A stretch of 64,000 nt of DNA from an uncultured bacterium (GCA_964514655.1 CAZEQY010000001.1:9614-73613); one strand, 5' to 3'. Shown: positions 14,824 through 19,541, counted from the stretch's first letter. Notes: generated from the letters alone by a model not told the origin. Made by a program: numbers and translations.

Positions 14824-14863
14824 TGAAAGAGGCCGGATACCGTTTCATGTGCGATTTGCTCGG
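14824..14863 (+). repeat. Solo copy of the gene-start end of the transposase-associated element (REP-like)
   Basis: TGAAAGAGGCCGGATACCGtttcaTGTGCGATTTGCTC aligns with the reverse complement of 16410-16447 (TGAAAGGGGCCGGATACTGcgactCGTGCGATTTGTGC). Confidence 0.6.
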
Positions 14864-14972
14864 ATTAACAAAAAACTGCTTAAAGGCATCTGTGAAACTG
14901 TGATCACGTCTTCCTTATTCGCTTGCTATCCAGTGGCCACGCTTCTCTATTTGTTCCACTAAAAAATCTTGG

Positions 14973-15941
14973 TTAATGCGTTTGAGCATAGGCAAGGATC
15001 GGGATTTCATAGGAGCGATTGCATATCTTGGCTGCTTGGATCGCTAGCTTTATTTCGTTAATGTAGAGATTGGCATAGGGACCTTTAAATACGCCGCCGT
15101 GAAGATCAAGCTGATATTGAGTAAGGCCTGCTTGCTGTTCTAGGCCCAAAATAAGAGTCTGCAGGGCAGCTGCTGCTTCTTTTAAAATGCGCAACGCTTG
15201 TCTGTTTTGCTTGTTCGCTTCTTCAAAAACCACAGGGGATAATAGGGCAAATTCTGCAGGGGGTATCTCTTTTAAGCGGCTAATAAGCGTTCGCATTTCA
15301 TCTACACGAAAGACATCCGGCACCTCGGCAGCCTTAATAGCGCGTTTTAGCTCTGTAATATCTGAGTCTACCACTCGCTCGGCATCAGTTGCCTTGCGAT
15401 TTTCTTCAGCTGCAATGGCAGCAATGAGCGCAAGACCAATTTTATGTGCGCTTCCCTCATCGCCAAGAATAGGTCCAAGACCTCCTTCGCGAAAGGTTCT
15501 CTCTCCCCTTCGTGCTAAAGCAATAGATCCTGTGCCCGAAATAAGAGCGATGCCATCTCCTGGAAGTAGCTTTAGGGCAATTTCTGCATCCGTCATAAGT
15601 TGGATGTTCTTCTGAGGAATGCCAAACTCCATAAAGAGACGCTCCACCTTTTCCTTGGTTTGAGGAACAGCAACGCCTGCCATCCCTGCCACAATGCGGC
15701 AGCGGGGGAGGACCTCTGTAAGCTTTCTTCCTGTTGCCTTTAGTATAACCCCATTAAAAAGAGCCTGCAGCGTCTTGCGCACCGTCTCTTCGCCTACTGA
15801 GTTGATGTTTGAAGAGGGGGCCTGCACCTCTGATAGATCCATGCCCTCTTTTGTCACCGCAATACGCTCTTTTGCTTCGTCAAGAAGCCACATGAGGGTT
15901 TTAGAGCCTCCGCCATCAATACAGATAGTAATTTCTGTCAT
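14973..15941 (-). CDS. BadF/BadG/BcrA/BcrD-type ATPase, N-acetylglucosamine-kinase-like
   Basis: ICIDGGGSKT (phosphate 1), ALISGTGSIA, and GGLGPILGDEGSAHKIG, typical of NagK/BadF sugar kinases. Confidence 0.75.
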   Translation of the reverse strand: MTEITICIDGGGSKTLMWLLDEAKERIAVTKEGMDLSEVQAPSSNINSVGEETVRKTLQALFNGVILKATGRKLTEVLPRCRIVAGMAGVAVPQTKEKVERLFMEFGIPQKNIQLMTDAEIALKLLPGDGIALISGTGSIALARRGERTFREGGLGPILGDEGSAHKIGLALIAAIAAEENRKATDAERVVDSDITELKRAIKAAEVPDVFRVDEMRTLISRLKEIPPAEFALLSPVVFEEANKQNRQALRILKEAAAALQTLILGLEQQAGLTQYQLDLHGGVFKGPYANLYINEIKLAIQAAKICNRSYEIPILAYAQTH

Positions 15942-16134
15942 TAGAATCTCCTTATTTATTTTTCCCGAGCGCAGGTCATAGATACGTATTTCATTGCTCC
16001 AAAGAGCAGTCGAATCTTTAGAGGCCCATTTTTAAGACAATCAAAATATAGAGAGTGCTGCGAAATGTCAACTACTTCTCGTGGCTGTACATTTCAAAAC
16101 AAAAGATGGAGCTTTCGCCTCTCTATTTTCAAGA

Positions 16135-16447
16135 TGAAAGGGGCCGGATTTTGCAACCCTTTTGAAAGCTGGGCAGCTCTAGCTAGAACTGCTCGTGCAC
16201 TCATAACATTTCGTTGTTTATTTTCACTGATTAACTGTTCAGCTGTATATGTAAATCGAGCGCACACCAAGTTGATGAGCATATCGTGTCGCAAATCGAT
16301 GTACGCCGCTCGCCAAACTACAGTCTAATGGCTCTAACAGCAAATGAATATGATTGTCATCAAGCAAAAAGCATGAATTCGGAACGCATGTTGGGGTTGT
16401 ATAAAGTAAGCACAAATCGCACGAGTCGCAGTATCCGGCCCCTTTCA
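16135..16447 (-). mobile_element. Decayed IS200-like/RAYT-type Y1 transposase element with 20-bp terminal inverted repeats and an internally deleted, frameshifted gene
   Basis: The ends are TGAAAGGGGCCGGATTTTGC (16135-16154) and the reverse complement of 16428-16447, TGAAAGGGGCCGGATACTGC (18/20 identical). Minus-strand fragments are ...CFLLDDNHIHLLLEP (a Y1 HUH-like NHxH motif) and ...ISENKQRNVMSARAVLARAAQLSKG (start of a DnaA-C-like HTH). Confidence 0.65.
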
Positions 16448-16448
16448 C

Positions 16449-17612: not shown

Positions 17613-17680
17613 TTATCACTTCAAGTAAGTCTACGCTTTTTGAAATATACAGCTCACTTACTACAAAATAGGGAAATTTT

Positions 17681-19420
17681 ATGAACCTTGCGTTTCTTTT
17701 TAGCCTCTTAGCACTACTAGGAAGCACACTTTCGGCTTCTGAATCCTCCTCTTCATCAAAGGGAAAGTATGCATTTGTTCAGGGAGGAAAATGTACGCCT
17801 GGCATTGGCACTAAGCAGGATCCATACAACTCTCTCGCTCTTGCACAAGCGGATACATCGTGGACAACCCTTGTTGTCCTTCCATCACCTGTAGCACTTG
17901 ATGGCGGTATCGCCATGCGGCCAGGCACTACAATTATCGGGGGAAAAAGCCCCGTGAATGGCTCACTTGATTACGATCAGCCCACTATTACCAATACATC
18001 TATCGATAGCAATGGTGGTAATGGCGTTGTCGTCATAAGCGGAGATGTCACCGTAAAAAACATCTACTTTAAAGACACCTGGGGCTCTGCCATTAAGTAC
18101 GACAATGCACGTGACTTAATTGTCAAAAATGTGCTTGTGACAGGCTTTAACCAGGGAGAGCTGATGGTTCCTGTATTGCCTCGTTTGAAACTTCGTGAAA
18201 TTGGCGCCTTTGATGCGACTATCCTCAATGACGGTAAAACAGAGGTTTTTAATACTATCATTCGCGACGGCCACACAGGCATTGGTATTGGAGAATTTGC
18301 TGTGGGAACCAATCGCCGTATGACCCTTGAGTCGGTTGAAATGAGCGGGCTCAGATCCTTTATCCCCGCAGAGCCCGATGTATTACGATTTAACGTAGCA
18401 GTAGCACCTATTTGCTTTAATTCTGCAAAGCTTAAACTCAAAATTAAAGACTGCTACTTCCATGATATGGCACCAAATTTTGATCCTTTTATCTTCACAG
18501 AAATAGTCAAAGTGGAAGCACGTGAAGGCTCTTTTGTCGAGATGGAAATGAAAAATACAAGCTTTGTACATAACCATGTATTCGGTCAGCTTTTTTTAAT
18601 GAATGACATTTCTACGTATACCTTGGATGATAATCTTGAATCATCGCTTGCCCTTAGTCGCTTTAAAAGTCACATCGAAAATTGCTACTTTGAAGAGCCT
18701 GTGGAGAACAGCCTCGAATCTGTCGTCGCAATTTATCACCAAAATATAAATAACTCACAAACAGACATTAAGATCCTAAACAATACATTCAATAATATGT
18801 ATGATAACATAGTTTCAATCTCTGCAGGGATCACCCGTGAAACGTATACCATTGAGGGAAATACAGGAACCGGTCTTGATGGCTTTTATACAGCTGCAAG
18901 CACGATTTCTGAAACACCAAATAGCCTAAACACAAAGGTAAAGATCAAAAACAATAACTTTGCAGGTGGAAATAACGGTGGCCCAGTTACTGTCGTTTCA
19001 GCACTTGATGGAGTAGATGCTCCATGGAATAGCCTGAAAATTTGTGTAGAGCATAACTGCTTTGATGGGCTAGGCTCTGGGTTTGCGGGCTTACTGGGGG
19101 TAGATTTTGCCTCAAATACTGTAGGAGCAGGAAATGCCTCAATATATGCCCACAAAAATAACATTATTGGCGTTGAGTTTGATATTTTTGATTCATTTGC
19201 AAACGTAAACTACTTTGCAGAAAAAAACTGGTGGGGACAGCCCTCCGGCGCTGACTCTATCCAGAATCTTGGAAGCGGCGTAGTAGATGTAAGCCATCCG
19301 CTCCATCGTCCAATAAAGTGCCCGCCAAAGACAGCGTGCATTCCAAACCCAGTAAGCCCTCCGCTCCCAGCGGCTGCGGCATCAGGACCAAAAGCGCTTC
19401 TAAAGCCTGTCCATTTCTAA
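17681..19420 (+). CDS. Secreted beta-helix protein (family member D, divergent type)
   Basis: Signal peptide MNLAFLFSLLALLGSTLSA and a Ser-rich linker. DPYNSLALAQ...TTIIGG...GVVVISGDVTVKNIYFKD...LIVKNVLVTG are pectate-lyase-fold-like turns. The C-terminus is Pro-rich (KCPPKTACIPNPVSPPLPAAAA) and the last residue is Phe. Confidence 0.75.
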   Translation: MNLAFLFSLLALLGSTLSASESSSSSKGKYAFVQGGKCTPGIGTKQDPYNSLALAQADTSWTTLVVLPSPVALDGGIAMRPGTTIIGGKSPVNGSLDYDQPTITNTSIDSNGGNGVVVISGDVTVKNIYFKDTWGSAIKYDNARDLIVKNVLVTGFNQGELMVPVLPRLKLREIGAFDATILNDGKTEVFNTIIRDGHTGIGIGEFAVGTNRRMTLESVEMSGLRSFIPAEPDVLRFNVAVAPICFNSAKLKLKIKDCYFHDMAPNFDPFIFTEIVKVEAREGSFVEMEMKNTSFVHNHVFGQLFLMNDISTYTLDDNLESSLALSRFKSHIENCYFEEPVENSLESVVAIYHQNINNSQTDIKILNNTFNNMYDNIVSISAGITRETYTIEGNTGTGLDGFYTAASTISETPNSLNTKVKIKNNNFAGGNNGGPVTVVSALDGVDAPWNSLKICVEHNCFDGLGSGFAGLLGVDFASNTVGAGNASIYAHKNNIIGVEFDIFDSFANVNYFAEKNWWGQPSGADSIQNLGSGVVDVSHPLHRPIKCPPKTACIPNPVSPPLPAAAASGPKALLKPVHF

Positions 19421-19428
19421 CCCAAACA

Positions 19429-19456
19429 CCCCTTGCAAACACCTGTTTGCAAGGGG
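19429..19456. terminator. Perfect 12-bp stem hairpin between convergent genes
   Basis: CCCCTTGCAAAC-acct-GTTTGCAAGGGG. There is no clear U-tract on either strand, so function as a bidirectional terminator is inferred only. Confidence 0.5.
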
Positions 19457-19520
19457 TCCTCTAAAAAAACGAGGTCAATCCTGGCATTCGGGCATTTGAG
19501 ACAAGAAAGCTAAAGAACTA

Positions 19521-19541
19521 TTTCATGTGCGATTTGCTCGG
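19521..19541 (+). repeat. Second solo fragment of the element end
   Basis: TTTCATGTGCGATTTGCTCGG is identical (21/21) to 14843-14863. As at that site, it lies about 100 bp downstream of a beta-helix gene on the same strand. Confidence 0.55.

Follow-up and report, generated by a model that had tools for sequence, protein, structure and literature searches.

Probable TIRtron remnants beside two beta-helix genes of an uncultured chlamydial bacterium

When the same short sequence lies just downstream of two genes of a similar kind, one may ask whether a mobile element seeks out such genes, whether it travelled with them, or whether its debris came to lie there for other reasons. This question is raised by a 64,000-nt stretch of DNA from an uncultured bacterium (GCA_964514655.1 CAZEQY010000001.1:9614-73613; from here: the window, on which positions are counted unless a locus of another genome is named), in which the 21-mer TTTCATGTGCGATTTGCTCGG follows the genes A and B, both coding for secreted proteins with an assigned or predicted beta-helix fold. 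An earlier note on this DNA proposed that an element targets sites downstream of these genes, or that the genes were duplicated or moved together with an adjacent element end. Our analysis makes a different answer the probable one: the 21-mer pair and the neighbouring motif TGAAAGNGGCCGGAT are debris of TIRtrons in the genome of an environmental chlamydia, the 21-mers come from one truncated stub, the repeats now recombine, and beta-helix genes are not targeted. The two genes are:

12624-14768, plus strand: gene A, 714-aa secreted beta-helix protein (PF13229, 32.9 bits; cut-off 25.9)
17681-19420, plus strand: gene B, 579-aa secreted protein, predicted right-handed beta-helix, followed by a hairpin at 19428-19457

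The 21-mer pair and the element behind it

The window holds exactly two copies of the 21-mer, at 14843-14863 and 19521-19541, both on the plus strand, and no third site even at up to three mismatches. The chance expectation is 0, as none appeared in 100 shuffles with three mismatches permitted. The copies follow the stop of gene A (14768) by 75 nt and that of gene B (19420) by 101 nt. Hence, exact search and shuffles bear out the identity, positions, orientation and spacing that had been reported for the pair. The same applies, by pattern search and by profiles, to the terminal motif described as common to the sites at 14824, 16135, 16447 and 17380. Sites of TGAAAGDGGCCGGAT occur at 14824(+), 16135(+), 16433-16447(-) and 17380(+), compared with 0.25 expected by chance; the motif TGAAAGNGGCCGGAT is present four times in 64 kb, confined to 14.8-17.4 kb, and terminal inverted repeat (TIR) profiles made from related genomes detect the same four units in the window and no others. 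A metagenome scan with the 21-mer gave 0 matches, and no known RNA families were found in the window.

The motif TGAAAGNGGCCGGAT is the head of a non-palindromic TIR of ~34 nt, here called TIR-A. In related Chlamydiales metagenome-assembled genomes (MAGs), TIR-A flanks the gene of a 311-aa HUH/Y1 transposase of the repetitive extragenic palindrome (REP)-associated tyrosine type (RAYT) with a putative DnaA_C-like C-terminal helix-turn-helix (HTH). Gene fragments with the HUH motif NHIHLLLEP and the putative DnaA_C-like HTH lie on the minus strand of the window at 16135-16447 and 17380-17609. Their conceptual translation led to one close relative, P0001 (86% identity). It comes from an uncultured Chlamydiales MAG, from a contig of 1.25 Mb on which a frameshifted Y1_Tnp plus HTH gene has three inverted-orientation copies of TAAAAGGGGCCGGACTTTGCGATTA on each side. 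The view that the remnants are ends of a transposase-bearing element was correct.

A collection of species-representative genomes, which does not include the window's own genome, was scanned with AAAGNGGCCGGAYN{10,11}TGNGATTT. Among the 40 loci obtained, about 26 belong to at least eight Chlamydiales MAGs and the remainder is close to chance (~17 expected). Two TIR-A subtypes were distinguished, t1 (TGAAAGGGGCCGGATACTGCGATTCGTGCGATTTG) and t2 (TAAAAGGGGCCGGACTYTGCGATTATGCGATTT). The profiles identified 77 TIR units at the 26 loci in at least eight MAGs. With few exceptions these units are intergenic, and they occur singly, as inverted dimers or in arrays. A single unit folds no better than shuffles (z +0.4 to +1.2); an inverted dimer forms a hairpin of -44.8 kcal/mol.

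At locus L026 an intact 311-aa gene is situated between t1 arrays. Its product scores 43.4 bits against PF01797 Y1_Tnp (cut-off 23) and 81.1 bits against NCBIfam NF047646 REP_Tyr_transpos (cut-off 80), and it contains the motifs NHIHLL and RYIHLNP. Similarity to Bac_DnaA_C stays under the Pfam cut-off of 31.5 bits both for the L026 protein (E 1.3e-4, 22.4 bits) and for the open reading frame (ORF) 16094-16294 of the window (E 1.6e-3); the C-terminal region of TIGR00362 DnaA is matched at E 2.5e-5. The flanking TIRs are inverted at L026 (772(+) versus 1844(-)) and at L002 (9329-9405(+) versus 10407-10486(-)), and neither of these ~1.1-kb elements contains a second ORF. Truncated TIR heads, TGAAAGGGGC, TGAAAGGGGCCGGAT and the 19-nt TGAAAGGGGCCGGATACTG, are stacked ahead of a full unit in several arrays (L026 625-805 and 1811-1887; L038 4652-4831; L025 70-159; L039 8-88). 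The 19-nt form recurs eight times in arrays of other MAGs and may mark a preferred cleavage or joining point.

Judged by their sequences, the elements belong to the known but little-studied TIRtron/TIRYT type. This layout was named by Di Nocera, De Gregorio & Rocco 2013 (PMC3733652) and corresponds to subclass 2.1.2 of the TnpA-Y1 superfamily of Quentin et al. 2018 (PMC6006769). The likeness consists in a RAYT-like HUH/Y1 protein, in its putative C-terminal HTH, which in subclass 2.1.2 is of the Bac_DnaA_C, HTH_23 or HTH_28 type, in non-palindromic inverted repeats around the gene, one of which overlaps the gene 3' end, and in the intergenic scattering of these repeats as singles, dimers and clusters, with several subfamilies per genome. 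There are also differences. TIR-A has GGGGCCGG, outside the published motif GGGGWSAS, which is common to many but not all published TIRs (PMC3733652); moreover, arrays of 19-nt partial heads are prominent and the window holds dead remnants only. In the literature searched, no report of TIRtrons/TIRYT in Chlamydiales was found.

Two better-known groups are related. With REP/RAYT systems and REPINs (Nunvar 2010; Bertels & Rainey 2011, PMC3116915) the elements share extragenic, dispersed repeats, inverted TIR-A dimers that give long REPIN-like hairpins, and an intact relative that passes the NCBIfam RAYT cut-off. However, the canonical REP unit is an imperfect palindrome of 20-40 nt plus a GTAG/CGTC tag, whereas TIR-A is non-palindromic and lacks GTAG, and its transposase would carry an extra HTH domain. 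IS200/IS605 elements have the same HUH/Y1 catalytic domain (PF01797), but TIR-A elements possess TIRs instead of subterminal hairpins, a putative additional HTH domain and ends that proliferate by themselves, and they have no tnpB.

At the 3' end of t1-type elements (L026, L038, L029, L025 and L003, in three MAGs) the TIR is followed by (GTG)ATTTATGAAAAGG and then by AAAGAACTATTTCATCTGCGATTGCTTGCAATTTCGG..., the far end of which is antisense to the C-terminus ...KLQAIADEIVLSFS and its stop. In L006, from a fourth MAG, the t1 3' end is kept only as far as ...CTATTTCATCTG. Window positions 19512-19534 match this conserved T1 3' end (TIR, spacer, AAAGAACTATTTCATCTGCGATT...), and the opposite strand encodes ...QAIADEIVLSFS followed by the stop. 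At the level of sequence, then, the 21-mer reads antisense to the final codons (EQIAHEI) of a T1 transposase gene.

Four remnants of the same orientation, R1 to R4, fill all four intergenic gaps between gene A and an ankyrin-repeat gene (14.77-19.56 kb):

14824-14842, plus strand: R1 head, a 19-nt partial TIR-A, TGAAAGAGGCCGGATACCG (nhmmer E 8e-4 for 14824-14856)
14843-14863, plus strand: 21-mer copy 1, antisense of EQIAHE, the last codons of a T1-type TIRYT gene, truncated after ..GCT
16135-16447, minus strand: R2, internally deleted T2-type TIRtron remnant with inverted ends at 16135-16157 and 16425-16447
17380-17609, minus strand: R3, 3' end of a T2-type element, TIR at 17380-17412 plus coding sequence of the HTH C-terminus
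19477-19501, plus strand: R4, decayed inner T1-type TIR (19/25 to the TIR consensus, collinear, shuffle p 0.0026)
19512-19541, plus strand: R4 stub, formed by AAAGAACTA (stop codon region, antisense) and 21-mer copy 2; on the opposite strand it reads EQIAHEIVL and stop

R1 is a T1 3' tip and R4 an old T1-type 3' tip. In R1 the TIR head is fused directly to the 21-mer, at the joint where partial heads end in the arrays of other genomes; it has the length of the 19-nt partial units found there and is preserved at 16/17 positions. In R4, positions 1-23 of the stub agree with the L026 T1 3' end at 22/23, and its first 14-20 nt match L038, L029 and L006 with at most one mismatch. The TIR profile detects no unit at 19.5 kb. 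The terminal motif had been described as degraded at this copy, which we could not uphold: GAAAGCTAAAGAACTA aligns instead to the conserved spacer and stop-codon region GAAAAGGAAAGAACTA, which in four other MAGs separates the TIR from the 21-mer-like sequence where intact or near-intact elements have their 3' ends. We rejected a degraded TIR head at 19505-19520, since its ungapped identity is ~6/19 and the conserved spacer aligns better.

The two inner remnants belong to the T2 subtype, with 82-89% amino-acid identity to the L002 protein. The inverted ends of R2 are 23 nt long and 87% complementary; R2 keeps the HUH motif and part of the HTH, its Tyr region is deleted, and it matches the L002 and L026 proteins at tblastn E 1e-14 to 5e-19, its end at 16414-16447 giving nhmmer E 1.6e-12. 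R3 (nhmmer E 7.4e-7; tblastn alignment of 72 aa with the L002 protein at 82% identity) is cut off at 17609, exactly at the start of gene B's conserved upstream region. The TIRs of the T2 remnant in the window combine a t1-type 5' end (16414-16447) with a t2-like 3' end (16135-16154, 17380-17412). As the L002 T2 element has t2 units on both ends, these mixed ends suggest that the T1 and T2 subtypes have exchanged ends.

Homology to the element is lost after ..GATTTGCT in both stubs, and the next three bases, CGG, are common to both. The right flanks (14864-14972 and 19542-19650) show no TIRYT similarity, neither as DNA (p 0.95 and 0.88) nor as protein. ATTAAC comes directly next in R1, while in R4 it comes after a 19-nt stretch bounded by CGG repeats and there lies within REP-B, the palindromic unit of a second repeat family described below. 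CGG plus ATTAAC (14864-14869) after copy 1 may be a REP-B fragment. Both stubs also deviate alike from five full-length MAG 3' ends, with G for C and one extra T. The shared truncation point and the three further shared bases argue for the common origin of the two 21-mers that had been proposed, so that R1 and R4 are rather likely to be copies of one already-truncated stub/REP-B junction and not two independent insertions.

Probable recombination at the repeats

Between the two 21-mers lie the following features, besides R2, R3 and gene B:

14973-15941, minus strand: BadF/BcrA-family ATPase gene, between R1 and R2 (PF01869, E 1.4e-21)
16155-16232, plus strand: 78-nt direct repeat, copy 1
16449-17327, minus strand: 292-aa glycosyltransferase (GT)-like gene with sub-threshold Pfam similarity, bracketed by R2 and R3, absent from contig L001
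17532-17609: 78-nt direct repeat, copy 2 (99% identical to copy 1)

An independent assembly of this segment was obtained with the Logan contig SRR26839107_367289 (L001; sample SRR26839107, 3331 nt), which was fetched as the reverse complement of the window. L001 is 99.8% identical to the window and encodes the BadF-like protein identically; a metagenome scan for relatives of this protein gave 0 matches. On the plus strand of the window, the order in L001 is 19512-19541, then 14864...16232, then 17610...19541. Its first 30 nt equal its last 30 nt (k-1) and this overlap stops exactly at the end of the 21-mer. Thereby the left flank of the 19.5-kb 21-mer, ending at 19520, is joined through the 21-mer to the right flank of the 14.8-kb copy, beginning at 14864. 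At k = 31, a repeat of 21 nt is too short to produce a false join, so that DNA with this head-to-tail junction exists in SRR26839107. L001 could represent a tandem array or a circle of the segment from the BadF-like gene to B.

L001 has a single copy of the 78-nt repeat and lacks 1377 bp (16233-17609) holding the GT-like gene, which is the product expected from an exchange between direct repeats. The 1377-bp segment constitutes an insertion/deletion polymorphism between near-identical strains. Deletion and amplification mediated by short dispersed repeats, such as REPs and copies of insertion sequences, are known from enterobacterial genetics. The present case resembles them in that the 78-nt pair brackets the segment missing in the near-identical strain and the 21-nt pair forms a head-to-tail junction. 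RecA-dependent exchange, slippage and transposase action would all be candidate mechanisms.

These observations would fit together as follows. TIRYT-class HUH/Y1 transposase genes would have been flanked by inverted ~34-nt TIR-A, which would also have spread intergenically. A single truncated T1 stub would then have been duplicated, or split by a recombination event, to yield the 21-mers of R1 and R4. Today the remnants would act as short direct repeats for recombination: the 78-nt pair would have deleted the GT-like gene in the 99.8%-identical strain, and the 21-mer pair would have produced the head-to-tail junction, either by tandem amplification or by release of a BadF-B circle.

An improbable yet still appreciable alternative is that the stretch bounded by the 21-mers forms a discrete translocatable unit, existing as a circle or tandem array, the 21-mers being scars comparable to attL and attR. 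Such a unit would comprise the BadF-like ATPase gene, the T2 remnant or remnants, the GT-like gene where present, and B, and it would have entered when its own stub recombined with one in the chromosome. The 3331-nt contig, with ends overlapping by k-1 = 30 nt and a junction running exactly from 19520 through the 21-mer to 14864, agrees with this idea, as does the fact that both termini of L001 coincide exactly with the 3' end of the 21-mer, for which the odds are ~1 in 3300 given an arbitrary start on a 3.3-kb cycle. The B orthologues of related MAGs, moreover, are found in quite different neighbourhoods. Nevertheless, the same junction arises by unequal exchange between existing direct repeats, without any mobility, and the evidence comes from one contig of one sample. 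The segment 14864-19520 contains no integrase or recombinase, replication gene or intact transposase and has no plasmid or phage relatives; a search with 14800-19600 gave no plasmid or phage match. Its GC content resembles that of the surroundings: a compositional anomaly of the bracketed segment was rejected at 0.40-0.46 compared with 0.44 for the window. Integrative elements with att sites are thus resembled in the 21-nt direct repeats and the joined form, but differ by the absence of a recombinase gene between the repeats.

A further reading appears unlikely, slightly more so than the translocatable unit: the 21-mers would be working recombination sites through which a 3.3-4.7-kb cassette (BadF-like ATPase plus B) excises as a circle or amplifies in tandem, and the joint between 14842 and 14843 would be a TIRYT strand-transfer site. 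The latter assignment follows from the observation that partial heads end at the same point in the arrays of other genomes.

The beta-helix genes and the placement of the remnants

The beta-helix label of both genes holds, for A by Pfam and for B by its predicted fold only (pLDDT, the predicted local distance difference test score, 88.4; top PDB matches all right-handed beta-helix, best E 9.5e-4). As paralogues, A and B were rejected (best BLASTP E 0.045 over 46 aa). Without significant similarity between the two genes, the proposal of a gene duplication together with the element end is not supported. That an adjacent element end moved along with the gene may hold for B alone, as B and the 19.5-kb stub are both on the segment joined head-to-tail in L001.

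A terminator scan placed the hairpin of gene A at 14781-14805. The orthologues of A in two related MAGs (L043 and L044; ~80% and 77% DNA identity) lose homology to the window at 14804-14812, and those of B, likewise in two related MAGs (L045, L046), at 19461, just past the terminator. No TIR unit is present near these orthologues of A and B, and their neighbourhoods are unrelated. In the related MAGs the B family forms tandem paralogue arrays (L045 1-2290; L046 7211-10820), in which the upstream region (TTTTATCACTTCAAGTGAA...) and a hairpin after the stop are both conserved; the window contains a single copy.

Two further PF13229/NosD genes are adjacent on the minus strand at 28658-30313 and 30328-32178 (551 and 616 aa). 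In total, the window encodes four beta-helix genes of at least three unrelated sequence families, and the profile finds no TIR unit at the two PF13229/NosD genes. At the 26 related-MAG loci, the gaps that hold TIR clusters are tandem, divergent or convergent in the ratio 12:6:5, near to random placement. An A-family gene stands beside a TIR at one locus only (L013), with the TIR on the 5' side of the gene, and no B-family gene occurs at the TIR-bearing loci. Targeting of sites downstream of beta-helix genes finds no support in the orthologues and the two other PF13229 genes, all without a unit, nor in the gap placement. Furthermore, the BadF-like, GT-like and ankyrin genes are flanked by remnants just as A and B are. 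Since remnants occupy all gaps from 14.77 to 19.56 kb, the 21-mer pattern is not specific to A and B: there is no special link of the remnants to beta-helix genes, and the position after the two terminators is incidental.

The placement could also be read as two independent insertions, drawn to sites just past the terminator hairpins of A and B and later eroded to the same tip. A strong hairpin (14781-14805 and 19428-19457) does lie within ~10-20 nt of the start of each stub, the substrate of HUH/Y1 transposases is single-stranded DNA close to hairpins (PMC6006769), and REP-type repeats have been reported mostly downstream of genes (PMC3733652). But this reading has to accommodate the identical truncation point with three shared bases beyond it, TIR clusters that show no 3'-end preference in related MAGs (12 tandem, 6 divergent, 5 convergent), orthologous A and B terminators that lack the unit in two MAGs, and the location of R2 in a tandem and of R3 in a divergent gap. 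We regard it as unlikely. A chance match or assembly artefact, for which nothing but the short repeat length speaks, is practically out of the question, being refuted by the 100 shuffles without a match at up to three mismatches, by the independent assembly that reproduces both copies and their inner flanks at 99.8% identity, and by the homology of the 21-mer to a conserved element end in other genomes.

Several points weigh against recombining TIRtron debris with a single stub at its origin, the explanation we prefer. The G for C, the extra T and the CGG could simply be the species' native master sequence, which would leave the shared truncation point as the sole argument for common descent. 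The TIR head of R1 is preserved at 16/17, whereas the TIR of R4 is almost gone, which is odd for recent sister copies; this unequal decay suggests a crossover or gene conversion limited to the 21-mer. The head-to-tail junction comes from one short-read contig of one sample. Finally, the census of elements covers related MAGs, and the source genome is represented by the 64-kb window only.

Neighbouring features and implications

On the right side of the second 21-mer, two features follow:

19536-19579, no strand assigned: REP-B, a palindrome belonging to a second repeat family (GGGTCAGA...GATTGACGGATTAACGGGTCTGACCCC), adjoining the 21-mer and overlapping the stop of the ankyrin gene
19562-21457, minus strand: ankyrin-repeat gene that converges on B and has its stop at a distance of 20 nt from the 21-mer

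The REP-B palindrome reads GGGGTCAGACC.GTTAATC...GATTAAC.GGTCTGACCCC, and the hairpin in the window folds at z -2.0. REP-B (GGGGTCAGAC...; GGGGTCAG, window 19568-19579, minus strand) fits GGGGWSAS. Further sites are L032 ~1880-1975, L036 5112-5141 and L002 ~12100-12190, the last of which is just upstream of a different, 216-aa Y1_Tnp gene (12297-12947).

A third short intergenic element, CTCTTAATCT(T/C)GATCTTGATCTTGATCTTAATCT with GATCTT repeats, is found at 28556-28595 and, at 86-89%, in two MAGs (L018 4630-4685, L022 6857-6894, L032 1410-1450). In the same gap, between 27401-28528(-) and 28658-30313(-), a perfect G8-T-C9 palindrome followed by a T-run (GGGGGGGGTCCCCCCCCCTCTTTTTTTT) occupies 28630-28648. 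Three ORFs of ~510-530 aa each are present at 38676-40253, 51081-52607 and 52669-54267. The first of them encodes a TLC ATP/ADP translocase (PF03219, 584 bits). The remaining two form a tandem pair with a 205-nt stretch at 73% identity and a spacing of 1597 nt, and part of the pair matches 38676-40253. These observations fit an obligate intracellular chlamydial lifestyle. Waddlia, considered as the source on the GC content of 43.8% alone, was dropped, the nearest relatives being unnamed Chlamydiales MAGs.

For annotation, the analysis accounts for the pseudogene fragments and for the repeats around 14.8-19.6 kb, but it uncovers no new tie of a mobile element to beta-helix genes. The region is flagged as structurally unstable, as a 99.8%-identical strain differs from it by one insertion/deletion and one head-to-tail junction; should the 21-mers be working recombination sites, the dosage or presence of the putative surface protein B would vary between near-identical strains. 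Only two points, the contig with the head-to-tail junction and the heads of 19 nt, might reward further study. This chlamydial clade, which has two TIR subtypes, both intact and dead copies, and 19-nt heads in arrays, would offer useful comparative material for locating the cleavage/joining site.

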